Of a DNA stretch of 36,460 nt, positions 12,658 through 29,283 are shown piece by piece; within the stretch, counting starts at the first letter, position 1, and the number at the start of each line of letters is the position of its first letter. This DNA comes from an uncultured Desulfobacteraceae bacterium (lineage in GTDB: Bacteria; Desulfobacterota; Desulfobacteria; Desulfobacterales; UBA11574): the NCBI GenBank assembly GCA_964551515.1, contig CAZKDT010000001.1:1-36460 (forward strand), in the 5' to 3' direction. A model generated the notes under the pieces. The model was given only the letters and a program-made list of their open reading frames with translations, did no database searches and had not been told where the DNA came from. Made by a program: the position numbers and the translations under genes.

Positions 12658-12694
12658 TATTAACCCGGTTTTTAACGTAATTTGCAGCGGCCGC

Positions 12695-13906
12695 ATGCTG
12701 GTCGCTCTTGTGATGGGTTTTGCCTGCGGTTTGCCGCTTCTTCTGACCATAACCGTATTACAGGCATGGATGAAAGAGCAAGGGGTGGATCTGACCGTGA
12801 TCGGAATGATCTCCCTCGTGGGTCTGCCCTATACGTTGAAGTTTCTCTGGGCGCCGGTTCTGGATCGTTTTACGCTCCCTTTTCTGGGCCGCAGAAGAGG
12901 CTGGCTTTTGGTGGCTCAGGCGGCCTTGATGGTGTCGATATCCGGTCTGGGCTTCACTGATCCCGGGAAGAATCCATGGATGATGGCCGTTGCGGCATTT
13001 CTGGTAACCTTTTTCAGCGCCTCGCAGGATATTGTCGTTGATGCCTATCGAAGAGAAGATCTCCCGGATCAAGAGCTGGGGATGGGCTCTTCTCTGTATG
13101 TCAACGGATACCGGGTTGGAATGCTGCTCGCTTCCGGCGGCGGCCTGATTATGGCAGATCACATGCCGTTTTTCATGGTCTATCAGATCATGGCGGCCTG
13201 TATGCTGCCTGGTGTTGTCACCACGCTTCTGGCACCGGAACCCAAAATTGACGTGGGGACTCCGGAAAGCATGAAGCAAGCGGTTGTTGATCCGCTGATC
13301 GAATACTTCAGCCGGCGGGGTGCGTTATGGATACTGGCCTTTATTCTTTTTTATAAAATCGGCGACACAATGGCCAGCGCCATGACCATACCGTTTTATT
13401 TGGATATAGGGTTTTCAAAAACCCAGATTGGCGCCGTAGTAAAACTGTTCGGCTTCTGGGCAACCATGGCAGGAACTCTGATCGGCGGGATGATCATGCT
13501 CCGCCTTGAGATCAACCGAAGCTTATGGATTTTTGGGTTTCTCCAGGCCGTATCCACCGCCGGTTTTGCAGTTCTGGCGCAGGTGGGTAACAGTCTTCCC
13601 CTATTGTCGACAGTTATCGCTTTTGAGAATCTCAGCAGCGGATTGGGGACCGCCGCTTTTATCGCATTCATGGCAAGCATTACCCACAAAAAGTTTACCG
13701 CCACACAATATGCGCTGCTCAGCAGCCTCATGGGAATTCCCAGGGTGATGGCTTCGGCGCCGACCGGTTTTTTTGCCAAGAACATGGGATGGGCAAGTTT
13801 TTTTATTGCCTGTACACTTATCGCTGCTCCCGGCATGCTCCTTCTTTTTAAATGTGCGCCCTGGAATCCTAACCCGGACAATCCGGAATTAATTATTGAA
13901 TATTGA
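12695..13906 (+). CDS. ampG: AmpG-family muropeptide MFS permease
   Basis: It is polytopic and carries GFACGLPLLLT..LQAWM and LGRRRGW motifs as in AmpG. The start is uncertain: ATG 12695 is chosen here, but the track's TTG 12644, which overlaps the pckG end by 14 nt, is possible. Confidence 0.85.
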   Translation: MLVALVMGFACGLPLLLTITVLQAWMKEQGVDLTVIGMISLVGLPYTLKFLWAPVLDRFTLPFLGRRRGWLLVAQAALMVSISGLGFTDPGKNPWMMAVAAFLVTFFSASQDIVVDAYRREDLPDQELGMGSSLYVNGYRVGMLLASGGGLIMADHMPFFMVYQIMAACMLPGVVTTLLAPEPKIDVGTPESMKQAVVDPLIEYFSRRGALWILAFILFYKIGDTMASAMTIPFYLDIGFSKTQIGAVVKLFGFWATMAGTLIGGMIMLRLEINRSLWIFGFLQAVSTAGFAVLAQVGNSLPLLSTVIAFENLSSGLGTAAFIAFMASITHKKFTATQYALLSSLMGIPRVMASAPTGFFAKNMGWASFFIACTLIAAPGMLLLFKCAPWNPNPDNPELIIEY

Positions 13907-13961
13907 ATATTTGTAGAAGTCGCTTCGCTCCGTCATTTTTTTGATAGGTCTTTTTAAAATT

Positions 13962-14052
13962 GAAAGAATGTAAGTTCTCAATAAATTATGGATTTGGCTC
14001 AATATCACCATTTGATACACCAGAACTTATTGAGATGTTACGAAAGAATTCC
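13962..14052. mobile_element. approx 89-bp hairpin MITE, family F2, copy 1
   Basis: cgtaagttctcaataaattatgg ... ccagaacttattgagatgttacg. There are 3 mismatches to copy 2 over the 77-nt core, and the arms are mutually reverse-complementary. Confidence 0.85.
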
Positions 14053-14177
14053 TTAAATTTTCAATATTCAATCGAAAATATTCAATCATTTGAAGATAGG
14101 AAAAATAGCCCAATTAAATTTTTTGCCACAAAATACAATAATTTCACAATTAAGAAACAAAAGAGCGAGATGAAACT

Positions 14178-15929
14178 ATGGAAAATAAAAAAGTCATCGC
14201 GAGAATCGAAAATCTTCAGCAGATGAGGAAAAAAATTGTTTCCATGTCCCCTGAAAACGCCTTGAATACTATTTTAGATTTGCCCCAACCCTCTGCCCTG
14301 ATCCATTCCTTCTCTGAAGAGGATTTTTATTTTTTAATCCATGATATCGGGCTCGAAGATTCTCATCCCCTGTTATCCCTTGCATCCGCCAGACAGTGGG
14401 AATACATCGTAGATCTTGAAGTTTGGCAAAAAGATAGAATCGAATTGAAATCGGTTACCCGATGGTTTGACCTGTTATTTAAAGTAGACCCGAATCGTTT
14501 TATCAAGTGGTTCCTTGACCAAAAAACCGAATTCATGGAATTTTATCTGTTCAAAAATATCGAAGTTAAAATTAGAAAGCATGATCAGGATCCATCGGAA
14601 TTTGGAAATGAGTTTTTCACATACGACGATATGTTTTATGTAAGGTTTCTTGACGATACCTTCGAACTTGAAACCGAAGAAACAGAGTCGGACGAAACCA
14701 TAAAAAAAGATCGCGACGCGTTTCTTTCACAATTTTTCAAAACCCTTGCAGCCTTCGACCATATCACATATCAAAAAGTTCTGCTGGAGGCTTGCAGCGT
14801 AATTCCCGCAGAAGCCGAAGAAGAAGCTTATCGACTCCGCAATGTAAGACTGGCGGAAAAAGGGTTTCTGCCATATGAAGAAGCCATTGGCATATATCGG
14901 CCGTTGAAACCGGAAAATTTTGAAAAGCAGGATACAAAATTTATCACAGCAGATCCTGACCGAAAACTGTTTTTTCCTGTTCCTTTCTATCATTCCGGAA
15001 TGCTGGACCAAGAAAATCTTTTTACCGCTGCCTTGAAAAAAATAAAAACAGATGATGTTATTGAACAAATTCAGACTGAATTTGCGGGACTGTGCAATCT
15101 TATCATCTCTGCGGATCGGAAAAATATCAGAGAAAAACAAGAACTGAAAACTATTGTCAAAAAGGTCTCCGGATACCTGAATATCGGACTTGAACGGTTA
15201 TCTCCCGACAACAGGGCTCCGGATGCCGGACATTGCGCACTATTGATACGCAACCACCCACTTTCCAATATTTTCAAGGTCGGATACGGCATCGCCCTTG
15301 AACTAAAATGGAGAGCCGAAAAATGGCAAGAAAAAAGCTGGTTTGAAAAACAAGGTCTGCTGCTGAGCTTCTGGGGCGAACAATGGCTGGGGGTGCTGGG
15401 AGGACTGTTGATTAAAAAACCGCTGTTTTTTGACAACTATACAACAGGGGTACTCTACAGGGAATTTATATCCATGAAAGACATACGGGCAACGGAGAAC
15501 GTATTGAGTGAAATTATCCTTTTTGACGATCTCTTTTCTTTAATGGCAATAAACCCCGAACCGGTTATAGACCGGTTTCTGACCTATAAAAATTTTATCC
15601 TGACTCTCTGGGCAAGAGATTACCTGGGCCTGTCAGGGAAAATTGAACCGTTACATCTTGATGAGTTCAAACGCCTTTTTGATGATTTCTGGGCAGGCAA
15701 AAAAAAGCCTTATAAAATAAAACTGCCCATGAAAGAATCGTTTTTAAGCTGGCTTTCAGAGCTGACCGGTTTCACCAATTACGACATTTCCCGAAAACTG
15801 GGGCATGTTCTGGAAAATCTTTTCGGCGAGATTGAAAACGAATACGGTGAAGTGTCAAGCAAAGATTTTGACCCCAGATATATTAACCTGTTTCTGGTAA
15901 AAAGAAAAATAACTAAATTAAAAAATTAG
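14178..15929 (+). CDS. conserved hypothetical protein, 583 aa; from memory possibly the DUF6178 family, with an MgtE-N-like helical N-terminus
   Basis: A long intact ORF with no catalytic or nucleotide-binding motif visible. It is helical, acidic and Trp/Phe-rich. The family assignment is unverified. Confidence 0.75.
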   Translation: MENKKVIARIENLQQMRKKIVSMSPENALNTILDLPQPSALIHSFSEEDFYFLIHDIGLEDSHPLLSLASARQWEYIVDLEVWQKDRIELKSVTRWFDLLFKVDPNRFIKWFLDQKTEFMEFYLFKNIEVKIRKHDQDPSEFGNEFFTYDDMFYVRFLDDTFELETEETESDETIKKDRDAFLSQFFKTLAAFDHITYQKVLLEACSVIPAEAEEEAYRLRNVRLAEKGFLPYEEAIGIYRPLKPENFEKQDTKFITADPDRKLFFPVPFYHSGMLDQENLFTAALKKIKTDDVIEQIQTEFAGLCNLIISADRKNIREKQELKTIVKKVSGYLNIGLERLSPDNRAPDAGHCALLIRNHPLSNIFKVGYGIALELKWRAEKWQEKSWFEKQGLLLSFWGEQWLGVLGGLLIKKPLFFDNYTTGVLYREFISMKDIRATENVLSEIILFDDLFSLMAINPEPVIDRFLTYKNFILTLWARDYLGLSGKIEPLHLDEFKRLFDDFWAGKKKPYKIKLPMKESFLSWLSELTGFTNYDISRKLGHVLENLFGEIENEYGEVSSKDFDPRYINLFLVKRKITKLKN

Positions 15930-16573: not shown

Positions 16574-17206
16574 TTATGCCTTCATATAAATACCAATTCC
16601 CGCATTTTTAATTTTGCCCCGTTTCTTCAGAATCTTAGCATTGTCGTATATTTTTCTTCTATTGAAACCGGTTTTTTCCATCAGTGTAGAGACATCTACG
16701 CCCTTTCTGTGTCTTTTGATGAAATCAAAAACAGTATCAACTGCTGTTAATTTGGCGGGTTTTTTAGCAGCTACCTTTTTAGCAGGAGCTTTTTGTGTGG
16801 CTACCTTTTTAACTAGTTTTGCTTTGGCCACAGTTTTTTGTTTTTCAAGTTTTCCGACCGTAATAATCATTTTGTCAACTTGCTTTGAGAGTACCTTTAT
16901 TTCTCTGTTAATCACTTGCAGGTTCTTTTTTAGATTTTTTGTCATTTCATTCTCCTCCTTTGTAAGTTCAAAAATTTTCCTACTGGAAGGTACTTGTTTA
17001 ACCCGATATTCCAGTTTAAGAGTATCGCTTTTCGTCATTTCAGAACTGACAATAACTAATTTAACAGGCCTCCGGGATCTTGTATATTTGGCACCCCTGC
17101 CTGAATTATGTGCTGCCAGCCTGTTTTTCAGGTTGTTGGTTATCCCACAATACAAAGATTCATCAGAACACCGAATCAGATAAACAACCCATTCCCTTTT
17201 TTTCAT
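16574..17206 (-). CDS. GIY-YIG nuclease-superfamily domain (UPF0213/YhbQ-like) fused to a coiled-coil, a Lys/Ala-rich histone-H1-like tract and a C-terminal wHTH-like domain
   Basis: The N-terminal 80 aa read WVVYLIRCSDESLYCGITNNLKNRLAAHNSGRGAKYTRSRRP...LEYRVKQ, which is GIY-YIG. Residues about 125-160 read AKAKLVKKVATQKAPAKKVAAKKPAK. The C-terminus reads FIKRHRKGVDVSTLMEKTGFNRRKIYDNAKILKKRGKI. Confidence 0.8.
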   Translation of the reverse strand: MKKREWVVYLIRCSDESLYCGITNNLKNRLAAHNSGRGAKYTRSRRPVKLVIVSSEMTKSDTLKLEYRVKQVPSSRKIFELTKEENEMTKNLKKNLQVINREIKVLSKQVDKMIITVGKLEKQKTVAKAKLVKKVATQKAPAKKVAAKKPAKLTAVDTVFDFIKRHRKGVDVSTLMEKTGFNRRKIYDNAKILKKRGKIKNAGIGIYMKA

Positions 17207-17317: not shown

Positions 17318-18030
17318 ATTTCTGCAACTTCTCAATAAGTTATGGTAGTAGACAAAATATTACCATTACGTTTTGTAAGGTGCTTATGGAATTTTAAAGT
17401 ATTTCTATAGAGAAAAGAAGAGAAAAATATTATCAAGGGTTCAAGGCATGTTGTCTAATCAGATCTGACAGATCCGGGATAAGTTCGGTATTTTCAATTC
17501 GATCTTTGAGATATTGCCAAAACGATACTCCCAATTTCCGACAAGTTTTTTTCAAGCTTGTAAATCTATCACGGCACTGACGATCAGACTCACTTCTGGT
17601 GTTACCACTGATTTTGCGTCTTTTAACAACTTTCGGAGGAGCAAATTCATCTTCAGGTGCTGCTTGCACATTTTGAAAAATACTTCGATGTCCCAGCGTT
17701 TGCCGTACAGCCTTATTATTTCTTCATCAGCTATGGAAATATCTGTTGATAAAAGCGCGAGCAAACCCGTTTTTTGTCACAGGAAACAAAAATGATTCTT
17801 GCTTTGTATCCGTCAGACCAACCAAGAGTGAGCATTCTGAAGCCCTTTAAATATTTCTTGCCCGTATGATCGAATACGCGGGAAAGAAGCTCAACTTTTT
17901 TGGAATACCATATTTTTTTTACTTTATGTAAAAAAAGAACTTGAAAGCTATTTTGCATTATGGTAGGCAGTCTCTTTGGTTTTTTACGCCCACATTTTTT
18001 ACTTAAAGACATTGAAAGGATTTTAATGAA
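17318..18030 (-). mobile_element. degraded IS (DDE_Tnp_1 / IS4-like transposase in at least 3 frames) with one surviving terminal arm
   Basis: Frame-shifted pieces read VFDHTGKKYLKGFRMLTLGWSDG, then IIRLYGKRWDIEVFFKMCKQHLK (the YxxRWxIE..F..K signature), then KKTCRKLGVSFWQYLKDRI. The arm aatttctgcaacttctcaataagttatgg (17318-17346) matches the F2 MITE arm at 26 of 29 positions. No second arm is present. Confidence 0.75.
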
Positions 18031-18471
18031 ATGACTCCAAAAAAAGAACTGCAATTCGCTTATGGCCTCATTATTATTCTATTTTTAGTGGGTGTTATAA
18101 GCTATGCAGCCTTTCCTGCCAAGACCCCGGATAAACCCATAAGAATAATGTACAAGGGAGTTGCAGGAAAAGTTTTATTTGACCACAAAACACATGCTTC
18201 AGAAGAGGGTTATGCTCTTTCCTGTAGCGACTGTCATCATCATCCCGAGGATGAGGACTCATCACTTCGAGCTTGCGGTGACTGCCATCAAGTCCCGGCG
18301 GAAGGCCAGGCATTGCCTGAATCTTGTACGGAATGTCATGATACTGATGAGGTCGAAGACACAGAAATCATAAAAAAGACTGATGCGTTTCATTCCCAAT
18401 GTGAGGAGTGCCATCAGGAAAGCGGAGCTGGTCCGGAAGAAAACAGATGCAGTTGGTGTCATGTCTCATAA
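18031..18471 (+). CDS. membrane-anchored multihaem cytochrome c (class III/c3-like, five CxxCH)
   Basis: It has an N-terminal hydrophobic helix (LIIILFLVGVISYAAF), the c3-type VLFDHKTH, and then CSDCH, CGDCH, CTECH, CEECH and CSWCH. The RBS GAAAGGA lies 10 nt upstream. Confidence 0.88.
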   Translation: MTPKKELQFAYGLIIILFLVGVISYAAFPAKTPDKPIRIMYKGVAGKVLFDHKTHASEEGYALSCSDCHHHPEDEDSSLRACGDCHQVPAEGQALPESCTECHDTDEVEDTEIIKKTDAFHSQCEECHQESGAGPEENRCSWCHVS

Positions 18472-18508
18472 GCCGTTTGCCGTATCGTTACCTGGAACGG
18501 CTTTTTTT
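18471..18508 (+). terminator. possible weak intrinsic terminator or attenuator between the cytochrome gene and rnfC
   Basis: A 7-bp stem (agccgtt / aacggct) encloses an 18-nt loop and is followed by TTTTTTT. The stem is short, so this may only be a partial terminator. Confidence 0.35.
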
Positions 18509-18551
18509 GTGTCCGATCACCTTAATACAGAAAAACAATATAGGTTAAACG

Positions 18552-19850
18552 ATGATAAAAAGATCCTTTATCGGTTTGGCAAAACCCAGGATAGAATATG
18601 AGGCTCTGGACGTTACCGTGCCGGAGCCCAAAATCATTCCAACTTCAAAAAAGGTTACGCTTTTATTAAACGAAATCTATGACCCGTTTGGCCAAAAAAA
18701 GGCTGTGTTATTAAAAAAGGATGATTCGGTTAAAACCGGTCAGAAGCTTTCTCTTTATGACGGCAGTGATGCCTATGTCATTTCCAGCGTTACCGGAACC
18801 ATATCTTCCATATCTTCTTTTTTGGGAGAATTTGGCCGTTCTTATACCGCCATTTCCATAGATGTTGCTGAAGATGAAGAGCTGGATGAACAATTCAAAG
18901 CCCTGTCCGTGGAACCTACCATGGATATTGCCAAAGATTATTTGTCGTTTATTCCCGGTGATCCACCGGCAAGTCTTTTTTCCAATGCCAGCACATCACC
19001 ATCCATAGATACCATCGTTATTTGCGGAGTTGATAGTGATTTATTAATTACCGCCAATCAGCATGCCCTGATGTCCGATGAAAAAGCAATCCAAAAAGGA
19101 GTTCGTATTTTAAAACAACTCACCGGAATTGAAAACATTATCATGGCCGCCCCTGAGCATCTGATGCAGAACGCTGGTGTAAGTGGCGCCCAGGTAAGCA
19201 TTGTGGATACAGAATATCCTGCGACACTTCCGCGCATGATCATGCAAAACGTCCTGGGAAAAGTGGTGCCTGCCGGAAAAAGCTGTGAAGATATGGGCGT
19301 ATGCTTTGTCAGTGCCGAGGCGATAGCCTCCATCGGCACAGCATTTGACCAGGGTCACATACCGCTTTTCAAAAAGTTCAACCTGATCAAAAAAGACGGA
19401 AACTCGGTAATGATATCGGCCCGAATTGGAACACCGGTCCATGAAATTTTTTCCGCCTGCGATGTTACCGTAAATGAAAAAGATCGTATTATCTTAGGCG
19501 GGCCCATGACCGGTTCTTCTATTTATTCGGAGCATCACCCCATTCAACCCGACACCGATGCCGTTATGATTCAGGACGGTAAAAACCTGGCGCTGGTTTC
19601 AGACTATCCGTGCATTAACTGCGGAGAATGTATTCGCATCTGTCCGGCAAAAATCCCGGTGAACATGCTGGTCCGATTTTTAGAAGCCGGACAATATGAA
19701 CAAGCCGCAGAAGATTACGATCTTTATTCCTGCGTTGAATGTGGTCTTTGCAGCTTTGTCTGCGTATCGAGAATGCCGATCTTGCATTATATAAAGTTGG
19801 CGAAGTATGAACTTGGCCGGATCAGTACAGCGGAGGCAACAAATGCTTAA
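18552..19850 (+). CDS. rnfC: RnfC-like subunit (2x[4Fe-4S]) with divergent flavin/NADH region
   Basis: It is collinear with RnfC/RsxC. GGPMTGSS, CINCGECIRICP and CVECGLCSFVC are retained, but the GxGGAGFP and ECEPY positions read GDPPASLF and VDSDLL. Confidence 0.85.
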   Translation: MIKRSFIGLAKPRIEYEALDVTVPEPKIIPTSKKVTLLLNEIYDPFGQKKAVLLKKDDSVKTGQKLSLYDGSDAYVISSVTGTISSISSFLGEFGRSYTAISIDVAEDEELDEQFKALSVEPTMDIAKDYLSFIPGDPPASLFSNASTSPSIDTIVICGVDSDLLITANQHALMSDEKAIQKGVRILKQLTGIENIIMAAPEHLMQNAGVSGAQVSIVDTEYPATLPRMIMQNVLGKVVPAGKSCEDMGVCFVSAEAIASIGTAFDQGHIPLFKKFNLIKKDGNSVMISARIGTPVHEIFSACDVTVNEKDRIILGGPMTGSSIYSEHHPIQPDTDAVMIQDGKNLALVSDYPCINCGECIRICPAKIPVNMLVRFLEAGQYEQAAEDYDLYSCVECGLCSFVCVSRMPILHYIKLAKYELGRISTAEATNA

Positions 19851-20802
19851 TCAGAAAAAATTCATCGTTTCACACGCCCCCTTCTGGCATGACGGGAGCA
19901 CAGTAACCGCCCGGAGTTATAATATGATAATTGCTGCGCTGCCTGCGGTGCTGTTTGGTTTTATGAGCTACGGCATCCCTGCGGTGGGTGTGATTTCACT
20001 CTCTATTTCCTCTGCCATTGTCTGGGAACTGTTGTTTAATAAAATATCAAAGCAAACGATCAGCATCGGAGACGGCAATGCAGCCCTGATCGGCATTCTG
20101 TTTGGGATGCTGTTGCCGGCGACATCTCCATGGTGGCTGGTTATAACCGGCACCTTTGTTGCCGTGGTTATCGGCAAACAGATATTCGGCGGGATCGGTG
20201 GCAATCCTTTCAACCCGGTCCTTGTCGGCCTTGCTATACTGATGCTGTCCTGGAAAGATTTTTTTGATTTTAATGAAGCTTTGATAAACTATGATCTCGG
20301 TTTTGCAATGGTCTACCCTCTTTCCGCCCTCAAACATTTAGGCACATCCGGTATTGATGCCTTCAACACAGCCGGTCTTCTGATGGGGCAGCAGTCAGGA
20401 GGCATCGGAGCAACCTTTGGACTGGGCCTTATCCTGGGCGGAATCTATCTTATCATCAGAGGGTTTATCAGATGGGAAATATCGGTATCATTCCTGGCCG
20501 GTGTATTTATAACCGCTCTGTTTTTCAATATTTCCGATCCTGCCCGTTACGCAGGACCTATTTTTCACCTTTTAACCGGTTATACACTGATCGGAGCGTT
20601 TTTTCTGGCCACGGAAGACTCTTCTTCACCGGTCAACTTTATTCCCATGCTTATTTATGGCGCCGGCGCCGGGATAATGACGGTGCTTATAAGAAATATC
20701 GGCGCCTATATTGATGGCGTAGTATTTGCCATCCTGCTGATGAATCTTGTAAATCCACTTTTGGACAAAATCAGGCCCAAAGCGCTTGGAAAGGTGGTTT
20801 AA
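19843..20802 (+). CDS. rnfD: RnfD subunit
   Basis: Polytopic, with GKQIFGGIGGNPFNP and FFLATEDSSSP (NqrB/RnfD family). The start is set at the ATG at 19843, with GGAGG 6 nt upstream and an 8-nt overlap with the rnfC stop. Confidence 0.9.
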   Translation: MLNQKKFIVSHAPFWHDGSTVTARSYNMIIAALPAVLFGFMSYGIPAVGVISLSISSAIVWELLFNKISKQTISIGDGNAALIGILFGMLLPATSPWWLVITGTFVAVVIGKQIFGGIGGNPFNPVLVGLAILMLSWKDFFDFNEALINYDLGFAMVYPLSALKHLGTSGIDAFNTAGLLMGQQSGGIGATFGLGLILGGIYLIIRGFIRWEISVSFLAGVFITALFFNISDPARYAGPIFHLLTGYTLIGAFFLATEDSSSPVNFIPMLIYGAGAGIMTVLIRNIGAYIDGVVFAILLMNLVNPLLDKIRPKALGKVV

Positions 20803-20803
20803 C

Positions 20804-21397
20804 ATGCGTGAATTGATAAAAATGGTTGTCGTTCTCACTGTTTTGGCCGCATTCTCCGGCGGCTTGCTTGCCGGTCTTCGGAATGGAACGGCTGCTCAGA
20901 TTGAAAAACAGCAACTTGAATTTGTTAAAGGACCCGCCATCAAGAAAATTCTTGAAGGTGTGTCCAATGATCCCATTTCCGACCGGTTTAAAATATCGGA
21001 TGGAGACATGGAAAGAAGTTTCTTCGTGGGCAAATTTGACGGCAAGGCCAAAATGGTTGCATTTGAAAGTTTCGGAAAAGGGTTTGCCGGTGAAGTTGGC
21101 CTGATGGTGGGTATCAACTTAGAGACCGATAAGATTGTCGGCATAGGGGTTACCACTCACAGTGAAACCCCCGGGCTGGGAGCAATGGCAAAAGATGATC
21201 CCGGTTTTGTCGCTCAATTTAAAGGTTTTTCTATAACTGAACCCATTAAAGTCACTAACGACGGCGGGCAGGTGAATGCAATCAGCGGCGCCACAATTAC
21301 TTCCCGGGCGGTTTGCGCGGCCGCTACCGACGCCGGCAAAGTGTATCAAAAGCTGAAACCCCAGGTTTCTGAAAAAATAAAGGAATTTAACAAATAG
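20804..21397 (+). CDS. rnfG: RnfG subunit (FMN-binding)
   Basis: It has an N-terminal anchor helix and the flavinylation motif SGATITS. The ATG at 20804 is 1 nt after the rnfD stop. Confidence 0.9.
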   Translation: MRELIKMVVVLTVLAAFSGGLLAGLRNGTAAQIEKQQLEFVKGPAIKKILEGVSNDPISDRFKISDGDMERSFFVGKFDGKAKMVAFESFGKGFAGEVGLMVGINLETDKIVGIGVTTHSETPGLGAMAKDDPGFVAQFKGFSITEPIKVTNDGGQVNAISGATITSRAVCAAATDAGKVYQKLKPQVSEKIKEFNK

Positions 21398-21407
21398 GGA
21401 GATCAAG

Positions 21408-21998
21408 ATGGCTAAGACGATCACTCAGGAATTTACCAAAGGATTGTGGGCGGAAATACCGCCGTTTCGGCTCGTGCTGGGTCTGTGTCCGGTGTTGGGT
21501 GTCACCACAACCATGGAAAATGGAATCGGAATGGGTTTGGCCACAACATTTGTCCTGTTATGTTCAAATATTCTGGTTTCGGCATTGAGAAACATCATTC
21601 CTCCAAAGGTAAGAATCGCCTGTTTTATCATCATTATTGCAACGTTCGTTATCGTCGTGGAACTGGTGATGCAGGCCTATGCTTATCGGCTGTTTCTCAA
21701 ACTGGGTTTGTTTATCCCCCTGATCGTGGTGAACTGTATTGTTCTGGGACGTGCCGAAGCATTTGCATCCAAAAACAATCTTCTGCTTTCAATGGCCGAC
21801 GGCCTGGGCATCGGCATTGGATTTACCCTTTCCCTGGCTGCGCTGGGTGCGATACGGGAGATTTTCGGAACCGGTACTTTTTTCGGGGCATCGGTATTCG
21901 GGGCTTCATACCAGCCCTTCACATTCATGATTCAGGCGCCGGGTGCATTTGTTAGTCTCGGGTTGATGCTTTGCATTATGAACCTGTTTGAGAAATAA
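21408..21998 (+). CDS. rnfE: RnfE subunit
   Basis: LVLGLCPVLGVTT and LIVVNCIVLGRAEAFA are typical of the RnfE/NqrD family. Confidence 0.92.
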   Translation: MAKTITQEFTKGLWAEIPPFRLVLGLCPVLGVTTTMENGIGMGLATTFVLLCSNILVSALRNIIPPKVRIACFIIIIATFVIVVELVMQAYAYRLFLKLGLFIPLIVVNCIVLGRAEAFASKNNLLLSMADGLGIGIGFTLSLAALGAIREIFGTGTFFGASVFGASYQPFTFMIQAPGAFVSLGLMLCIMNLFEK

Positions 21999-22012
21999 AG
22001 AGGAGAAGATAA

Positions 22013-22594
22013 ATGAACGAGCTGGGCTATTTCTCAATAATTATCAGCACAATTTTTGTTAACAACATTCTGCTGGCCAAGTTTCTGGGCAACTGTCCGT
22101 TTCTTGGCACATCAAAGAAAATGGAAACTGCTGTGGGTATGGCCATGGCAGTAGTTTTTGTCCTGGTGATGGCAGGAGCCATTACATGGGTGATCTACCA
22201 TCTATTTTTGGTGCCGTTTGATCTGGTATATCTCAGAACCATCGCATTTATCCTGGTCATTGCATCTCTTGTTCAGTTTGTTGAGTTGTTCCTGAAAAAA
22301 AGCATTCCCGCCCTGTATGCCGGACTCGGCATCTTCTTGCCGCTGATTACGACGAACTGTGCGGTGTTGGGCGCTTGTGTCATAAACATCGATGAAGAAT
22401 TAGGCTTTATGAAGTCGCTTGTCGCATCGTTTGGGTTTGCCGTGGGTTTCGGTGTTGCGCTGATTCTTTTTGCAGGTGTCCGAGAACGAATTCTTTTGGC
22501 CAGGGTTCCAAAACCGTTCCAGGATACGTCCATCGGACTGATCACCGCCGGAATTCTTTCTCTTACATTTTTTGCTTTTAAAGGGATGGTGTAA
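22013..22594 (+). CDS. rnfA: RnfA subunit
   Basis: LGNCPFLGTSKK and LPLITTNCAVLG are typical of the RnfA/NqrE family. Confidence 0.92.
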   Translation: MNELGYFSIIISTIFVNNILLAKFLGNCPFLGTSKKMETAVGMAMAVVFVLVMAGAITWVIYHLFLVPFDLVYLRTIAFILVIASLVQFVELFLKKSIPALYAGLGIFLPLITTNCAVLGACVINIDEELGFMKSLVASFGFAVGFGVALILFAGVRERILLARVPKPFQDTSIGLITAGILSLTFFAFKGMV

Positions 22595-22596
22595 GG

Positions 22597-22659
22597 ATTG
22601 ATGGTTGTTGATTGAAGAATTGTCGGATCATCTATTAGAAAAAATAGAATTCCATCAAT
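22597..22659. other. nested AT-rich palindrome in the rnfA-rnfB spacer
   Basis: attgatgg (22597-22604) pairs with ccatcaat (22652-22659), and there is an inner tctat/ataga hairpin. Further tcaat/attga copies run up to the rnfB RBS. Confidence 0.4.
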
Positions 22660-22707
22660 TTTCAATATTAAAGAGTCAATCATCAATATGTAAATAAGGA
22701 GGTCAAT

Positions 22708-24801
22708 GTGTTAACAGCTCTTTTGTTTATGTTGGGCTTGGGTGCAGCATGCGGACTCATGCTGAGTGTTGCCTCAAAAGTTTTTTATGTCTATGAGGAT
22801 CCCCGAATTGCCGAGGTAGAAGCATTTATGGCCGGCGCAAACTGCGGAGGTTGCGGATATACCGGATGCTCCGCCGCAGCTGTTGCCGTGGTTGCCGGCG
22901 AAGCGCCCCCCAGTGTCTGTATCGTTGCCGACGCTGAGGCCGCAGCTAATATCGCCGCTATTATGGGCGTGGATCCGGGTACGGCGGAGCCCTTACTTTC
23001 CTACAACACCTGTACGGGCGGTGATCGCGCCCCCGATAAATATTATTATATGGGAATTAACAGCTGTCAGGCCCTTGCCACCTTGTATGGGGGCAAACGA
23101 GAATGTCCGGTAGGATGTCTGGGGTTGGGCGACTGTGTCAGGGCCTGTGCTTTTGATGCCCTTAAGATGGGACCTCATGGATATCCGGTTGTGGATGAAA
23201 TGAAATGCGTGGGATGCGGTGCATGTGAAAAAGTCTGCCCCAAGGATATTATGGAAATCAAAACCATGTCCCAAAAGCTGCTTCATCTCAATCAGTATGA
23301 TGATCGTATTGCCCCCTGCCAGCAGACTTGTCCGGCCGAAATTGATATTCCCAGATACATTTACCAAATCAAGAACGGGGATTACGAAGGAGCGGTAAAC
23401 ACAATCAGGGAACGAAATCCCTTACTGTTATCCTGCGGCCGGGTCTGCCCCCATCCCTGTGAAGATAAGTGCCGCAGGGGCATTGAAGACGAACCGGTTT
23501 CCATCAATCAGTTGAAACGGTTTGTTGCCGATTATGAAATGAATTCAGGACGTCGTTTTCCCGTATCCGTGGCCCCTTCCACCGGTAAAAAAGTGGCGGT
23601 CATCGGTGGAGGTCCGGCCGGACTAAGCTGTGCTTTTTTTCTCCGCCGTTTGGGCCATGATGTTACGATTTTTGACGCTATGCCTAAACTCGGAGGTATG
23701 ATTCGGTATGGAATTCCAGAATATCGACTCCCCAAAGAGGTGCTTGCATGGGAAACCGATGGGATTTTAAAGATAGGAATTGAACACAAGCCAAACATAA
23801 TGCTGGGCCGTGATTTTGACATCGGATCACTTATAGCTGCCGGATATGACGCCGTGTTCTTGGGTATCGGCGCATGGAAAGATTACACCCTGCGTGTTGA
23901 AGGTGAGGATCTTAAAGGCTGCTACACCGGAATTAATTTTCTGACCAATTTCGCTTTATGGCAGCAGGAAGACGGAAATGAAGACCGTCGGCCGTATGTG
24001 GGCAACAGATGCGTCGTGATCGGCGGCGGGAACACTGCCATAGACTGTGTGCGGACCCTGATTCGTCTGGGCGCTGAAGAAGTATCCATTGTCTACCGCC
24101 GGACCCGGAAAGAAATGCCTGCTAATGAGGTTGAAATCGTCGCCGCCGAACATGAAGGCGTAAAATTTACTTTTCTGGCTGCGCCCACCCGTGTGATCGG
24201 AGATGAGGACGGCAATGTTACCGGGCTTGAATACCTGAAGATGGAGCTTGGTGAACCCGATGCCAGCGGCAGACGCCGTCCGGTACCCATTGAAGGTTCG
24301 GAGACCGTCATGGATATCGATATGCTGATTACCGCCATCGGCCAGGGTCCGGATGTCTTTTTCAAGAATGAAAGCAAACGTCTTGACCAAGATTTAAATA
24401 TTACCCGCTGGAATACCATTGACTCCGAAGATCCGGTGGCGCTGCAGTCCAGCATACCTTATATTTTTACCGGGGGAGACTCCGCAACCGGTGCGGCCCT
24501 GGTGGTCTCTGCGATTGGCGCTGGCCGACGAGCAGCCCGCTCGATTCATTTATACATTACCGGCGAGAAAATAACGCCACCGGCGAAAACGTTGTTTACG
24601 AATAATATACCAGTGTCAATCTTTGAATCGGTTCCAGGAATAGAAAAATCTTCAAGAACAAAGATGCCGGAACTTCCGGTTGATGACCGTATAAAGTCAT
24701 TTATAGAGGCAGACCTTGTGATCAACGAAGAAGATGCCCTGTATGAATCAGGTCGCTGTTTGCAATGCTGTCTGACCTGCTATAACAAAGATGTTGCCTG
24801 A
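22708..24801 (+). CDS. rnfB: RnfB-like Fe-S subunit fused to a GltD/NfnB-like FAD- and NAD(P)H-binding oxidoreductase (697 aa)
   Basis: Residues 1-190 contain a TM helix, CGGCGYTGC, CPVGCLGLGDCVRAC and CVGCGACEKVCP, as in RnfB. Residues about 195-600 contain CQQTCP...GRVCPHPCEDKC, VAVIGGGPAGLSCAFFL, GGMIRYGIPEYRLPK, VVIGGGNTAIDC and GGDSATG, as in GltD/NfnB. It has a GTG start with AAGGAGG 5 nt upstream. Confidence 0.85.
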   Translation: MLTALLFMLGLGAACGLMLSVASKVFYVYEDPRIAEVEAFMAGANCGGCGYTGCSAAAVAVVAGEAPPSVCIVADAEAAANIAAIMGVDPGTAEPLLSYNTCTGGDRAPDKYYYMGINSCQALATLYGGKRECPVGCLGLGDCVRACAFDALKMGPHGYPVVDEMKCVGCGACEKVCPKDIMEIKTMSQKLLHLNQYDDRIAPCQQTCPAEIDIPRYIYQIKNGDYEGAVNTIRERNPLLLSCGRVCPHPCEDKCRRGIEDEPVSINQLKRFVADYEMNSGRRFPVSVAPSTGKKVAVIGGGPAGLSCAFFLRRLGHDVTIFDAMPKLGGMIRYGIPEYRLPKEVLAWETDGILKIGIEHKPNIMLGRDFDIGSLIAAGYDAVFLGIGAWKDYTLRVEGEDLKGCYTGINFLTNFALWQQEDGNEDRRPYVGNRCVVIGGGNTAIDCVRTLIRLGAEEVSIVYRRTRKEMPANEVEIVAAEHEGVKFTFLAAPTRVIGDEDGNVTGLEYLKMELGEPDASGRRRPVPIEGSETVMDIDMLITAIGQGPDVFFKNESKRLDQDLNITRWNTIDSEDPVALQSSIPYIFTGGDSATGAALVVSAIGAGRRAARSIHLYITGEKITPPAKTLFTNNIPVSIFESVPGIEKSSRTKMPELPVDDRIKSFIEADLVINEEDALYESGRCLQCCLTCYNKDVA

Positions 24802-24829
24802 AACGCATCTTCCAAAAAAAATCAACCAG

Positions 24830-24866
24830 AGCGCAAAACGTAATCTTTGTTTTGCGCTTTTTTGTT
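24830..24866 (+). terminator. rho-independent terminator of the rnf operon
   Basis: A 10-bp stem (agcgcaaaac / gttttgcgct) encloses a 9-nt loop and is followed by TTTTTGTTT. It begins 28 bp after the rnfB stop. Confidence 0.8.
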
Positions 24867-24879
24867 TAAATGATATAAT

Positions 24880-24979
24880 TTTGATGAATTCGTAAAAAGT
24901 CTAATTCACCTGTTTTAGGTTTTTGATACTTAAAATGTTCATAAAAAGTCGTCTTTTGACTTTTTACGAAGCCATCAAA
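24880..24979. repeat. MITE-like palindromic element, family F1, short copy c
   Basis: The arms are tttgatgaattcgtaaaaagtc (24880-24901) and gactttttacgaagccatcaaa (24958-24979), matching at 20 of 22 positions. The element ends 2 nt before the ATG at 24982. Confidence 0.8.
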
Positions 24980-24981
24980 CT

Positions 24982-25719
24982 ATGCCGCTACTCAGATTAT
25001 ACAAATTTATCTTACTATTGCTTCTTTTTTTAGTTGTTGCCGGCTTGATATTTCTATTATTACGGCAAGACAATTTAAATACTCACAATAACACACCCGA
25101 GGTTCCCTCTCAAAGATATTCAAAACATCGCCTTAATATTAAGGGGTTCGAATTTGATAGCCTCAATAATGGAGAAAAGATGCTTTCCATAAAAGCAGAT
25201 AACTTCACTATTGAAAAGAAAAAGCTGGGCTTTTTTAGATTGGGTTTGATCAATGTTGCGATATTTGAGAATGCGGTAATTGATATTTACCTCAAAAGAA
25301 AATTATCTGATAACAGATCGAATTTTATAAGGGATGCCTTGCCGTCCTTAAGGGATGCCTTGCCGTCCTTTTCCACAAAACGAATCTCTTCCATCACATT
25401 AAAACCTGTATGCTTAAAGCTCCGGAATAGGGATTCTTTATTTACCCAAATTACTTCTAAAGTTGCAATTATCAGGTTAAAAAAACACAATATTCTATTT
25501 AAAGGAAACGTTCAGGTTGTATCGGGCAATAAGAGGCTGTATACAAAATGCCTGACTCTTCTTCCTGAAGAATCTATCATGAAAACTGAACAACATTTTA
25601 TTTTAAAAACCGCTCAAAAAAAAATGGAGGGAGAAAAACTCACCGTGGACATATTCCTGAATTTAGAGCAAGAGAATGATAAGACAGGGATGGAAAGCAA
25701 TACCGTTGGTAAACGCTGA
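24982..25719 (+). CDS. membrane-anchored hypothetical protein, possibly an LptC/OstA-like beta-jellyroll
   Basis: It has an N-terminal TM helix (ILLLLLFLVVAGLIFLLL). The later pattern ILFKGNVQVVSGNKRLYTKCLTLLPEE...GEKLTVDI resembles LptC/LptA repeats. The functional call is weak. Confidence 0.6.
   Translation: MPLLRLYKFILLLLLFLVVAGLIFLLLRQDNLNTHNNTPEVPSQRYSKHRLNIKGFEFDSLNNGEKMLSIKADNFTIEKKKLGFFRLGLINVAIFENAVIDIYLKRKLSDNRSNFIRDALPSLRDALPSFSTKRISSITLKPVCLKLRNRDSLFTQITSKVAIIRLKKHNILFKGNVQVVSGNKRLYTKCLTLLPEESIMKTEQHFILKTAQKKMEGEKLTVDIFLNLEQENDKTGMESNTVGKR
25330..25371 (+). repeat. perfect in-frame 21-bp tandem duplication (RDALPSL RDALPSF)
   Basis: agggatgccttgccgtcctt is repeated twice head to tail inside the 24982-25719 CDS. 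Confidence 0.95.
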
Positions 25720-25761
25720 TGATTTTCTATTGACAAACCGTTGCTCCGAAACTTTTTCTAA

Positions 25762-25843
25762 GTGTCAGGTGTCAGGTGTCAGGTGTCAGGTGTCAGGTGT
25801 CAGGTGCCAGCGCTTTTGTTCATCATTCCTGAAACCTGAAACC
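25762..25843. repeat. family F5 element: (gtgtcag) x6 plus gtgccag, followed by cttttgttcatcattcctgaaacctgaaacc
   Basis: The heptamer array spans 25762-25810. The tail matches 33537-33564. The repeat and the tail are partly self-complementary (caggtgtcagg / cctgaaacctg). Confidence 0.9.
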
Positions 25844-26215
25844 AAATAGCCATAGCAATCTTAGCAAAAACAGTCTTGATTTACATCCATAAGACAATTG
25901 AAAAACCTGTTGATTGCAACCGATCCTTCTCTTGAGCCTTATCAATTGAGATTAAATTTGAAAAATTAATGAATAAAAAAAGATCATCATCCGATTTAAC
26001 ATTTGTAGCATTTGGGTAAAAACTAGGATGATGTGATTTTGTCTAAACCCGCTCCAATTAAGCCGTTAAAAAAATCTCATTAATTTTCATGCAAAATTCA
26101 GGTAATAATCTTGACTTTATGAGCTTATTTTATTTAATCTGATATCTCAAAATTATAGAGAATTAAATGTGCCCACCATGCTTCCTATATCAAAGATAAA
26201 AGAGGAAATTAAATC

Positions 26216-27622
26216 ATGAAAAAAATCAACATGTTGTTATCTTTTGTATTTCTTATGGTTATTTGCCCCATATCGGTTTCAAATGCCGCAACCGGGCGGG
26301 AGCTGCTTTTTAATCATGGCAATCCAACATATTCCGGTCTGGTTGCAGCAAACCAAAAGTTTAAAGATGCACTTTCTGCCGAGCCAAATAATCAGGAAGC
26401 CAACTTGTTTTATGCAGTGACACGTATCGGAACTTTTACATTGGAAGAGGGGAGCGGCAGCGGTCTTGAGACCCTGAGGGATGTATTTCAGGCATTTGGT
26501 ATGACCCGCAATAGCAATGAATTCTTTGAAGACGGCTCTCCCTATGACACACCTTCCAAACTTCCCGGTAATTCTCCAAGCGGTGAAGAAATTCGGCAAT
26601 TTTTAGTCGGGCCCTGTGTAACTTTGTTGAATGGTGCCTTGGCCAATCTCGAAAAAATCGGCAGTTCTTTCCAGACAACCCTTACAGCAGACGAAACCGG
26701 AGGTGAAGCCGTTGAAATAGACTACGGAGATATTTTAATGTATAAAGCGATGTTAAATGCCAGTAAGTGTTTATTATTAATCATGTCTTCTTATAATATT
26801 AACGTGGATATAAATGAGGTTGCAAATAAAATAAACAATGATCCATTTAGTATCAACGCGGACTTACTCAATACATATCCGAATTTATTAAAACTTGTTA
26901 ATGGAGGAGGAGAAACACTCCTGTCTGCCGAGGAAGCATTGCTGGCGGCAATCAATAGATATCTTGATGCCTCCACATTTATCAGAACAATAGAAACGGA
27001 CGATCAATTGAATGATTTGATTGCATTTGACCCCGATGACCTTCAGGATGAAGAACTCTTCCGTCAAAACCTGAATGAACTGAAGGCCTCATTAAACGAA
27101 AATAGAACCGCCGACCTGACAGATAATGTTGAACATCTTTTGTTAAATCTCAATTTCTTCTTTGGTTATGGAAGCGGCCCTTATGATTTGCGGGATTTTT
27201 TACCCCTGTTTAATCAATGCAGCAATCCAATAGCCGGCACCGTGGGGCACGGCCTTGGGGATGACGCCACTCTTGGAGGTATCCTGCCTGGTTATTTACA
27301 AGCAGATTGGGGGATTGAATCCGAACCGGGAGCAATCATGTATGTGAACAAGGATGATTGGATATGCGGAGGAAAGGAGCCTTGCAGACAGTCCATAACA
27401 CAAGCCATAGTGGATGCAGGCTGTGAGGTTTTAATAAAAGTGGCCTCTGGAATTTACAACGAAGACATTGTTCTGACTGACCTTAAATTCATCACTCTTC
27501 AGGGAGGATATGATTCCCCGTACGAATCTCAAACAGGGGCCACCACAGCAAATTCCATGATCATCAAAGAAGGAACGATGACGGTTTCAAATATCGTTTT
27601 GGGCCCTGCCGGTCCAAGATGA
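26216..27622 (+). CDS. secreted hypothetical protein (468 aa) ending in what looks like the start of a right-handed beta-helix domain
   Basis: It has a Sec signal peptide (MKKINMLLSFVFLMVICPISVSNA). The C-terminal 85 aa read PCRQSITQAIVDAGCEVLIKVASGIYNEDIVL...ITLQGGY, which resembles the N-terminal cap of pectate-lyase-fold domains. The ORF then stops. Confidence 0.7.
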   Translation: MKKINMLLSFVFLMVICPISVSNAATGRELLFNHGNPTYSGLVAANQKFKDALSAEPNNQEANLFYAVTRIGTFTLEEGSGSGLETLRDVFQAFGMTRNSNEFFEDGSPYDTPSKLPGNSPSGEEIRQFLVGPCVTLLNGALANLEKIGSSFQTTLTADETGGEAVEIDYGDILMYKAMLNASKCLLLIMSSYNINVDINEVANKINNDPFSINADLLNTYPNLLKLVNGGGETLLSAEEALLAAINRYLDASTFIRTIETDDQLNDLIAFDPDDLQDEELFRQNLNELKASLNENRTADLTDNVEHLLLNLNFFFGYGSGPYDLRDFLPLFNQCSNPIAGTVGHGLGDDATLGGILPGYLQADWGIESEPGAIMYVNKDDWICGGKEPCRQSITQAIVDAGCEVLIKVASGIYNEDIVLTDLKFITLQGGYDSPYESQTGATTANSMIIKEGTMTVSNIVLGPAGPR

Positions 27623-27639
27623 AGCCCTAATGAACAAAA

Positions 27640-28045
27640 TCATTGAAGCTGGCGGCCAATCAGAAGCCCGGATATGGATTGCCATGTCAGGTGGATGCCA
27701 CGACAATTTCAGAAAACGCCAGCTGTTTCGAATCTTCTTTGATGCTTAAAATACAGTGCATGGAACCGATTCCTTCATATGGGATATTCCCATCAAACCG
27801 GAAGGTGAATCAAAGACTCAGGGACATTGCGTACATTTGAAAACACCACCGGTCCCGCATCCTGATGGGCAATATGGATATCCCGAAGGGGGGACAGATC
27901 CATACAGTATACCATGAAGTTGTTTTCCCACCCACATAAAGAGAACTTCCAAAATCCACCGCCTAATTTCTAATCAAACCAATTTATGTGCCTCACTCGC
28001 AGTGGCCGTAACTTCTCTAGTCCATTAATGTGTTCCCGCTGCTTG
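27640..28045 (-). pseudogene. decayed class-I SAM-dependent methyltransferase
   Basis: The minus strand reads ...RHINWFD*KLGGGFWKFSLCGWENNFMVYCMDLSPLRDIHIAHQDAGPVVFSNVRNVPESLIHLP, then shifts frame to FDGNIPYEGIGSMHCILSIKEDSKQLAFSEI. The order of motif I (xLDxGxGxG), DxS and the acidic-loop pFD is preserved. There is an in-frame TAG at 27970-27972 and at least one frameshift. The boundaries are approximate. Confidence 0.4.
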
Positions 28046-28048
28046 GAT

Positions 28049-28234
28049 TCATTGACAAGCATCTTCAACTTCTTTGATGGCCATTAAAACCATTTGCCGA
28101 TATACTGATATCTTTTTGTCTACAACCGCCAGACTGCGGTCCACTTCGGCGGCCCGTGGTTTGAACGGAATGCAGGATACTACGAGCACAAGGATAACTG
28201 CCAATCTTATAAGTTGAGTTACATAATTTTTCAT
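28049..28234 (-). CDS. possible small lipoprotein (61 aa)
   Basis: It has a signal-like N-terminus ending in the lipobox-like VVSC. It begins 41 bp downstream of the MBL gene stop on the same strand. There is no other support. Confidence 0.35.
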   Translation of the reverse strand: MKNYVTQLIRLAVILVLVVSCIPFKPRAAEVDRSLAVVDKKISVYRQMVLMAIKEVEDACQ

Positions 28235-28275
28235 AACCCGCTACCGGCGCCATTTTGTCGGTTCTCGATTAGGGA

Positions 28276-29283
28276 TTAACTATGTATGTGATATGAATCC
28301 AGGGTTTCCGTTTCCAAAAGCTGCTGTAATCCCTTGTACCTGGGTGAGAAATGGAACGGCGTAACCTGTTTTACCCCGGCTTTACCTGCAATTCTTCCGG
28401 CTTGCCAAGCGGTGAGATGGCATTTTTTTTCGGCAATATCCCTGTCCCTTTCAAGAAACGCCGCTTCAATAAACAGGTGATCTGAGTTTTTAGCAAGTTC
28501 AATAATCTTTGCTTCATTTGATTTGCTATACGCAGCATCTACAATATATGAAACCTTCTGACCTGGAGTGATAAGAGCAATCCGCTTTGCGAGATCACCC
28601 AGGATGAACCTTTTCTTATATGAACCTTTCCTGCCGTATTTAACCTCAAATTCCGAATCAGGGTCTATATTATTATACAAAGCCTGTTTAAATTCATTTA
28701 GCCACGGACCGATATCAAGCCCGAGACCGGCAACACGCTCTTTTATTATATTTATGTGAAATCGTTCTTCAATGGTAAATCCGAGACAGGGAATACTATG
28801 ATCAAGAATTTCAGCAGAAACGGATAGGACCGGTTCCTTGTGTAAAAAACCGTTAAAAGACTGCTTGATATCCTCTGAATTCGGGATAAATTGCTTTTGG
28901 CATACGTAATTTCTCGTGATCATACGATCAGGATGCACCTCGGTAACGTTCAATGCGAATAGATTACTGTAATGTTTAACAAGGTTCCATGAGTATCCGG
29001 CAAGCTTCCCCTCAACATTTTTCAAAAAACCTTCAGGACCATACAAATAAAGTTGGTGTTCGCGGCCAAGGAAAAGACGCAGCAACCTGTCAAACCCAAT
29101 AAAATGATCCATATGCGTATGGCTGATAAAAACATGGCTGATTTTGAGAATATCTCTGGTCGAAAGTGAATAGATATCTCCCAGATCGAAAATTATAGCA
29201 CGTTTTTCAAGAAGGAACGGGATGAATAGTCCGGGGTCATCAAACGGTCCGTTCACTAACCTGGGAAGGAAAGAAGGGCGCAT
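28276..29283 (-). CDS. MBL-fold metallo-hydrolase, RNase Z/ElaC-like
   Basis: It carries the HxHxDH motif (ISHTHMDHF), and the downstream His/Asp positions (ILDHS, VDAAYS, TPFHFSPRY) are as in RNase Z-type beta-lactamase-fold enzymes. Confidence 0.8.
   Translation of the reverse strand: MRPSFLPRLVNGPFDDPGLFIPFLLEKRAIIFDLGDIYSLSTRDILKISHVFISHTHMDHFIGFDRLLRLFLGREHQLYLYGPEGFLKNVEGKLAGYSWNLVKHYSNLFALNVTEVHPDRMITRNYVCQKQFIPNSEDIKQSFNGFLHKEPVLSVSAEILDHSIPCLGFTIEERFHINIIKERVAGLGLDIGPWLNEFKQALYNNIDPDSEFEVKYGRKGSYKKRFILGDLAKRIALITPGQKVSYIVDAAYSKSNEAKIIELAKNSDHLFIEAAFLERDRDIAEKKCHLTAWQAGRIAGKAGVKQVTPFHFSPRYKGLQQLLETETLDSYHIHS

Follow-up and report, generated by a model that had tools for sequence, protein, structure and literature searches.

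A type of Rnf complex found in marine sulfate-reducing bacteria was described in 2016 as the 'D. toluolica Tol2-type Rnf' by Dörries 2016 (PMC5109826), where it is credited to Wöhlbrand et al. 2016 (Proteomics 16:973), and it is reported as rnf2, together with a 15-kDa cytochrome, from D. autotrophicum and D. multivorans (PMC5109826). D. multivorans has both Rnf1 and Rnf2. In a Science Advances paper of 2025 the type was named Rnf2, was found in all Desulfobacteraceae genomes, i.e. as part of the core genome, and was abundant and constitutively formed in six strains (PMC11887813). It was proposed in the supplement of that paper that the oxidation of ferredoxin, and perhaps also of NADH, reduces an associated cytochrome c3, from which the electrons pass to Qrc, menaquinone and Qmo, and the remaining Rnf2 subunits were termed 'very similar' (PMC11887813). 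The stretch of DNA analysed here (hereafter the window, 36,460 nt, from an uncultured Desulfobacteraceae bacterium) contains at positions 18031-24801, on the plus strand, seven genes coding for a c-type cytochrome and for RnfC, RnfD, RnfG, RnfE, RnfA and RnfB. We consider it nearly certain that they represent an ordinary Rnf2, or Tol2-type, cluster of Desulfobacterales, in a genome related to metagenome-assembled genomes (MAGs) such as JASFHC010000037 and Eth-SRB2.

The assignment to Rnf2 is based on an RnfB of about 700 amino acids (aa) with a pyridine-nucleotide oxidoreductase module (Pyr_redox_2), an RnfC which scores below the model cut-off and has neither an SLBB domain nor the Complex1_51K site, a small c3-type cytochrome gene in the same cluster, and the taxon, as the related loci belong to Desulfobacterales. 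The gene order, cytochrome-rnfCDGEAB, is that of the type as well. Nothing essential sets the window cluster apart; the fifth haem of its cytochrome comes from an insertion that 45 of 66 relatives also have, and the cluster shares about 90% DNA identity with several public MAGs. It is thus one more member of a described type and not the undescribed Rnf variant suggested in an earlier note on this DNA, since the type has been in print since 2016 under the name Tol2-type and since 2025 under the name Rnf2. What is added here is comparative: flavin sites are lost jointly in RnfD and RnfC, RnfB varies, and the cytochrome gene is present in some clusters and absent from others. No mention of a Tyr in RnfD or of RnfD/RnfC co-variation was found in the Rnf2 literature searched; the Desulfobacterales type is not mentioned in a 2025 review of RNF and NQR (PMC12174285) and is not discussed in two papers on protein flavinylation, one of which is PMC10979944.

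Flavin sites of RnfC and RnfD

With the canonical Rnf complexes of A. woodii (9eri), C. tetanomorphum (7zc6) and A. vinelandii (8ahx), which are Na+-translocating ferredoxin:NAD+ oxidoreductases, the window cluster shares the six subunits, the RnfA/RnfE cysteines, the covalent-FMN motif of RnfG and, in RnfB, the N-terminal Fe-S part. Unlike them, it has an RnfC without the flavin mononucleotide (FMN)/NADH site, an RnfD without the FMN-bearing Thr, an added cytochrome c gene, and an RnfB in which a flavin adenine dinucleotide (FAD)/NAD(P)H module is found instead of the distal polyferredoxin.

In profile searches, RnfC reached 188 bits with TIGR01945 (cut-off 246) and 31.0 bits with Complex1_51K (cut-off 31.2), with only positions 26-148 of the latter profile matched, while no match to the SLBB domain was obtained. 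In the HMMER alignments to 7zc6_C, 9eri_C and 8ahx_C both motifs of the canonical FMN/NADH site (GxGGAGFP and ECEPY) are replaced, 'GMGGATFP' by 'GDPPASLF' and 'NAAECEPYLT' by 'CGVDSDLLIT', as had been noticed from the sequence earlier, and both CxxCxxCxxxC motifs are retained. The AlphaFold (AF2) model of the protein, with a predicted local distance difference test (pLDDT) score of 74, has RnfC chains as its top Foldseek matches at template modelling (TM) scores of 0.64-0.66, followed by NqrA; the Fe-S domain at residues 346-418 is of low confidence and the model confirms only the RnfC-like fold. There are 2888 homologues of this RnfC variant, and their NCBI name is no more specific than '4Fe-4S dicluster domain-containing protein', as would be expected of proteins that fail the RnfC model.

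In RnfD, the segment 'gfamvYpl' is aligned with 'GVTTATPL' of 7zc6_D and 'TATPL' of 9eri_D, which places Tyr at the position of the FMN-bearing Thr (T156 in A. woodii; PMC11889175), again as the earlier note had it. Of the two riboflavin-ligand positions, one is kept as Asn and the other is changed conservatively to Glu. Pseudogenization of RnfC and RnfD was considered and ruled out by the conserved cofactor residues and the published proteomic detection. As a side observation, chain 9ud3_B in the PDB, an NqrB of V. cholerae, reads 'SGAYALS' at its flavinylation motif, which is the same Thr-to-Tyr change as is natural in Rnf2 RnfD and appears to be an engineered variant.

The rest of the membrane core is conventional. 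The flavinylation motif SGATITS of RnfG is intact and its SGAT is retained in the 80 nearest loci described below, and the protein reaches 256 bits with NF045876 (cut-off 205), which assigns it to the DVU2794-type RnfG subfamily. The [2Fe-2S] cysteine pairs of RnfE and RnfA are invariant in 75 and 70 sequences, respectively. The Thr of the RnfG S/TGAT motif and the RnfA/RnfE cysteines are as in canonical Rnf, and the sequence observations of the earlier note all hold.

The genome scan performed with RnfD yielded 80 nearest loci with RnfD identities of 67-94%, all of them from Desulfobacterales or 'Deltaproteobacteria' MAGs. The flavinylation position of RnfD is occupied by Tyr in all of these except one with Phe, Asn and Glu are found at the riboflavin-ligand positions in 73 and 78 loci, respectively, and every RnfC lacks GxGGAxFP and ECEP and keeps all eight cysteines. 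For a deeper survey, representatives of RnfD at 50% identity were used, with context look-ups for seven distant Thr-less clusters and two control clusters. The nearest RnfD clusters, about 37 in number and reaching down to about 37% identity, do not have the (S/T)xATPL motif, and the more distant ones mostly have it. The seven Thr-less RnfD proteins (37-46% identity) all adjoin an RnfC without the motifs, and in six of the seven, i.e. wherever the contig allows, a fused RnfB of about 700 aa is adjacent as well, so the co-occurrence of fused RnfB and degenerate RnfC, for which the earlier note had proposed a survey, is found. Both controls with (S/T)xATPL in RnfD possess an RnfC with GLGGATFP and ECEP intact, and in one the RnfB is short. 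Throughout the clade, the Thr of RnfD and the flavin site of RnfC are thus lost together, and the RnfB fusion is equally deep. As for the Desulfovibrio-type RnfD (dhcA-rnfCDGEABF), the genome scan gave Desulfobacterales only, and no Desulfovibrio names were met in the look-ups of 20 representative RnfD.

The fused RnfB

The first 200 residues of RnfB comprise a membrane anchor and Fe-S domains and match 7zc6_B (residues 4-199, E 1e-49). They are followed, at residues ~176-690, by a GltD/NfnB-type module with Fer4_20 (~200-280) and Pyr_redox_2 domains, FeS/Fer4 domains being matched too. The module has an FAD motif, GGGPAG (residue 296), and an NAD(P)H motif, GGGNTAID...YRRT (residue 436), that is, two Rossmann motifs preceded by a two-cluster Fe-S domain, as is characteristic of NfnB and GltD, and it reaches 496 bits with PRK12771 (cut-off 516). 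The claim of a C-terminal FAD and NAD(P)H module of about 500 aa is consequently backed by profile domains and by matches to solved chains. The best solved relatives are NfnA of C. saccharolyticus and of T. sibiricus NfnABC (9bov, 9n5u) and StnC of S. ovata StnABC (8oh5), with E-values of 1e-112 to 1e-124, and next come two NfnB proteins, from T. maritima (4ylf_B, E 1e-102) and from P. furiosus (5jca_L, E 4e-99).

The RnfB module shares with StnC and NfnA the FAD and NAD(P)H Rossmann motifs, the Fer4_20 clusters and a C-terminal RCxxC extension. Those modules are, in contrast, fused to NuoG/FdhF-like domains in soluble bifurcating transhydrogenases, whereas that of the window is located on a membrane-anchored RnfB. 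The extension of the latter, RCxxC(C/G)xxC with C684, C687 and C691 (window positions 24757-24780), is aligned with the one in 9bov_A. Among 42 fused RnfB sequences GGGPAG, GGGNTAID...YRR, six Fer4_20 cysteines (204-255) and the three tail cysteines are all conserved. Since the two clusters of Fer4_20 are matched by no more than six invariant cysteines, a cluster may be completed by the tail folding back.

In StnC, FAD and NADPH are bound by the GltD-like domain, which also contains two [4Fe-4S] clusters, and this FAD is non-bifurcating and feeds a linear Fe-S chain (PMC10482914). As the closest solved relatives bind NADPH, this is the likelier nucleotide for the RnfB module. The same structure bears on the suggestion that the NfnB-like FAD of RnfB bifurcates or confurcates electrons so as to couple the membrane path with NADPH and ferredoxin, the high-potential branch being the cytochrome. 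The NfnB proteins of T. maritima and P. furiosus, whose FAD does bifurcate, are homologues of the module, but it is closest to the StnC/NfnA type with its linear chain, and we regard bifurcation as very unlikely here.

As many as 7955 homologues of the fused RnfB were found; the 120 best are 660-708 aa long, come from many independent assemblies and align over 95-100% of the query with 79-95% identity. A frameshift or an assembly join of two genes is ruled out by these thousands of full-length homologues from independent assemblies with conserved motifs. With invariant cysteines and motifs and the published proteomic detection also taken into account, the probability that RnfB, RnfC and RnfD are artefactual or decayed is negligible. 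The earlier note had allowed for the fused type being common and already characterized as a standard NADH-dependent Rnf; it is indeed common and described, but not so characterized.

The fused RnfB is ancestral and a short RnfB is derived in one subclade (Ca. Desulfaltia, Eth-SRB1 and relatives; loci L027, L028, L033, L039, L044, L049, L058, L059, L063, L067 and L072), which nests among the fused-RnfB lineages on the RnfD tree. These loci have the order cytochrome-rnfCDGEA with a degenerate RnfC and a Tyr-containing RnfD and no rnfB after rnfA, and a conventional rnfB coding for about 271 aa is located a few genes away, sometimes on the opposite strand. The complexes of this subclade have no evident pyridine-nucleotide site, leaving ferredoxin and the cytochrome as their evident partners.

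Proposed electron path through the complex

The cytochrome consists of 146 aa with CxxCH motifs at residues 65, 82, 99, 124 and 140 and five additional His, and it matches Cytochrom_CIII/class III and TmcA-like models in profile searches. Of the membrane-anchored five-haem cytochrome claimed earlier, the five haem motifs stand, and the hydrophobic N-terminus may be either an anchor or a cleavable signal peptide with a possible SYA/AF site. Four of the motifs are invariant in the 66 related cytochromes; the second one (C82) lies in the insertion that 45 of them share, while the remaining 21 are tetrahaem proteins, and the number of haems is therefore variable in this family. The gene is present in all 66 loci, out of the 80, in which the contig reaches upstream of rnfC.

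Three clusters in the distant part of the survey differ in the accessory genes that they carry after rnfB. In L083, a distant Rnf2-like cluster, a 536-aa multihaem cytochrome is encoded downstream of rnfB, after an RseC gene (12647-14257); in L086 a second small cytochrome follows rnfB (11896-12435) and is itself followed by a NiFe-hydrogenase small subunit; and in L089 an ApbE flavin transferase is encoded after rnfB (12098-13117).

In A. woodii, the Na+ path runs through RnfA/RnfE around the membrane [2Fe-2S] cluster, RnfD being only an electron wire to RnfC and NAD+ (PMC11889175). The half circuit from RnfB to RnfG would hence still hold the whole coupling device. The canonical return branch, consisting of the RnfD FMN, riboflavin, the RnfC Fe-S clusters, the RnfC FMN and NAD+, is left without both of its FMN sites, and the complex is thus not expected to act as an NAD+ reductase as it does elsewhere; the simplest exit would then be from the RnfG FMN to the periplasmic cytochrome. 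A route of this kind has already been suggested for the NAD(P)-independent Rnf of M. acetivorans, in which RnfG is proposed to pass electrons to a co-transcribed multihaem cytochrome, MmcA (PMC4023990). By description, that system resembles the window cluster in having a cytochrome c gene first, in not using NAD(P) at RnfC and in the proposed transfer from RnfG FMN to the cytochrome (PMC4023990). It differs in being archaeal, with a plain polyferredoxin RnfB that has no pyridine-nucleotide module, methanophenazine as the downstream acceptor and a cytochrome of unrelated size.

On this basis the following path can be put forward. NAD(P)H, more likely NADPH, would transfer a hydride to FAD in the GltD-like module, and ferredoxin may donate at the Fe-S chain. 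Single electrons would pass through both [4Fe-4S] clusters of this module, then through the clusters of RnfB, to the membrane [2Fe-2S] cluster of RnfA/RnfE, next to the covalent FMN of the periplasmic RnfG, and would leave for the co-encoded c3-type cytochrome and, from there, for the periplasmic cytochrome pool, Qrc, menaquinone and sulfate reduction. The complex may also run in reverse. The Rnf2 identity together with this half circuit is, as a whole, the explanation towards which we lean by a small degree. The mechanism from the RnfB fusion through the A/E cluster and the RnfG FMN to the cytochrome, with its putative substrates, electron direction and ion coupling, is offered with slightly less confidence, as a tentative proposal. 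Extended to the clade down to about 37% RnfD identity, it would describe a half-circuit Na+-pumping NADPH(/ferredoxin):cytochrome c3 oxidoreductase, an independent rewiring of the NQR kind in which the RnfC clusters serve a third partner, and this we consider possible but more doubtful still.

The remaining use of RnfC is addressed differently if the full circuit is kept with its ends exchanged, so that NAD(P)(H) would react at the fused RnfB, and a low-potential carrier such as ferredoxin at the RnfC clusters, with electrons travelling via RnfD in what would be a ferredoxin:NADP+ oxidoreductase. Such an exchange would agree with the invariant four-cysteine motifs of RnfC and with the RnfD riboflavin-ligand positions being occupied by N124 and E258. 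It would also agree with the triad of fused RnfB, FMN-less RnfC and Thr-less RnfD, which persists to RnfD identities as low as 37% and often lacks a neighbouring cytochrome gene. However, RnfD has no FMN attachment site to bridge the RnfG FMN and riboflavin, and the subclade with a short RnfB is devoid of any evident pyridine-nucleotide site. Moreover, on the leg from RnfB to RnfG, Na+ travels the same way as the electron (PMC11889175), and an exergonic transfer from ferredoxin at RnfC to NADPH at RnfB would then presumably drive Na+ inwards. Because of this polarity the exchanged circuit is ranked below the half circuit, and it seems unlikely to us. The functional reading of the earlier note, with nucleotide entry on RnfB, no NADH site in RnfC and a cytochrome outlet, remains reasonable and matches the published proposals, while its strict swap of entry modules is weakened by the short-RnfB subclade and by the Na+-coupling site lying on the RnfB-to-RnfG leg.

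RnfC also matches NqrA models (NF003761 with 85 bits; NQRA_2nd), and its structural model superposes on NqrA at TM scores of 0.49-0.55, which is in line with a convergence on NQR, i.e. a Na+-pumping NAD(P)H:menaquinone oxidoreductase with the RnfB fusion in the role of NqrF, RnfC in that of NqrA and the quinone at the RnfD/RnfC interface. The V. cholerae Na+-NQR is comparable in that NADH enters through a flavin and Fe-S subunit, NqrF, on the RnfB side and in that the NqrA flavin is lost. The drop in potential from NAD(P)H to menaquinone is large enough to pump, and the clusters without a cytochrome gene would be accounted for. Nevertheless, NQR requires the covalent FMN which NqrB keeps and for which RnfD has no equivalent site, NqrA is devoid of the Fe-S clusters that the window RnfC retains, NqrF is unrelated to GltD, and NQR uses a quinone acceptor and no cytochrome, whereas the cytochrome gene is constant in the Desulfobacterales loci with upstream sequence. 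The convergence is thus quite unlikely, somewhat more so than the exchanged circuit.

Several points weigh against the half circuit itself. The midpoint potentials of c3-type cytochromes are low, and the energy released when NAD(P)H reduces c3 may not suffice for pumping. The choice of NADPH over NADH, though more likely, has homology as its sole basis, and no enzymology of any Rnf2 was found in the literature searched. Outside Desulfobacterales, the upstream cytochrome gene is present in only two of the seven clusters with the triad. Given that the eight RnfC cysteines are invariant and the riboflavin positions of RnfD are largely kept, the branch formed by these two subunits would still be electron-carrying, which suggests that it is still linked to some cytoplasmic partner. 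An RnfD without the Thr may also still hold a flavin, as the RnfG-type flavin has been proposed to sample a non-covalent site in Nqr/Rnf-like complexes (PMC10979944). Finally, proteomic detection of the cytochrome is restricted to D. multivorans grown on lactate (PMC5109826).

Rnf2 matters as a possible route by which electrons of ferredoxin and NAD(P)H in the cytoplasm may reach the membrane-bound and periplasmic machinery of sulfate reduction. Desulfobacteraceae are responsible for much of the carbon oxidation in marine sediments. If Rnf2 is indeed a Na+-pumping NAD(P)H/ferredoxin:cytochrome c oxidoreductase, it would be a main energy-conserving link in that chain and a second independent re-plumbing of the Rnf scaffold, after NQR.

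Gene layout and flanking DNA

The coordinates of the cluster and of its neighbours are collected in Table 1. The seven genes are separated, in order, by an 80-nt gap, an 8-nt overlap and gaps of 1, 10, 14 and 113 nt, the open reading frame (ORF) check reproducing exactly the co-directional order and spacings noted earlier; the strong terminator at the end of the cluster was found as well.

Table 1 Features of the rnf cluster and its surroundings (positions in the window).
Feature	Position	Strand	Remarks
DUF6178 protein	14178-15929		583 aa; match over full length, E 7e-171
GIY-YIG gene	16574-17206	-	nuclease domain at residues 6-73
Transposase remnant	17433-18054	-	three short ORFs in different frames
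Transposase fragment	17552-17764		DDE_Tnp_1, E 1.6e-4; contains 'YGKRWDIEVFF'
Conserved promoter-like/5' leader block	17932-17991	+	invariant columns in aligned loci
Cytochrome c gene	18031-18471	+	146 aa; c3-type multihaem, five CxxCH, hydrophobic N-terminus
rnfC variant	18552-19850	+	432 aa; RnfC fold, two [4Fe-4S] motifs C354..C364, C394..C404
rnfD	19843-20802	+	Tyr158 at FMN-bearing Thr position; N124, E258 at riboflavin-ligand positions
rnfG	20804-21397	+	SGATITS intact; DVU2794-type RnfG subfamily
rnfE	21408-21998	+	membrane subunit; [2Fe-2S] ligands C27, C110
rnfA	22013-22594	+	membrane subunit; [2Fe-2S] ligands C28, C116
rnfB fusion	22708-24801	+	697 aa; RnfB + GltD/NfnB/StnC-type module
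Intrinsic terminator	24828-24870	+	13-bp stem at 24828-24860, then T run; closes conserved operon unit
Region after the terminator	24870-28290		~3.4 kb
LptC-like gene	24982-25719
Gene for 468-aa protein	26216-27622		no Pfam match

Nucleotide homology to the closest relatives is confined to ~17890-24869, and this stretch is accordingly regarded as the conserved operon unit. At its 5' end there is a leader block composed of an A-run, CTTGAAAGC, TTTT and ATT.TG.TA.G, located ~40-100 nt 5' of the start codon, with a conserved GAAAGGA ribosome-binding site farther downstream. Its conserved bases are invariant over 14 aligned loci, of which two end inside the block and 12 cover it completely, and from this alignment the block is probably the promoter or leader of the operon. 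A scan for the sigma-70 consensus gave promoter-like matches no more often than in shuffled sequence and did not flag the block, and in the Rfam scan of the whole window no riboswitch or small RNA was found near the operon.

The three minus-strand ORFs upstream of the cluster resemble a frameshifted remnant of a DDE transposase, which adjoins and slightly overlaps the start of the cytochrome gene; the related loci show no homology upstream of ~17890, and no copy of the remnant was found among 91 loci. Just upstream of it there is a gene of unusual architecture, in which the GIY-YIG domain is combined with a Lys/Ala-rich histone-H1-like stretch and a basic C-terminus. On the opposite flank of the cluster, the region after the rnfB terminator, with the LptC-like gene and the gene for the 468-aa protein, has no counterpart in three related loci (L002, L008 and L013), whose sequence after rnfB matches the window from position 28291, which points to an insertion in the window or a deletion in those loci.

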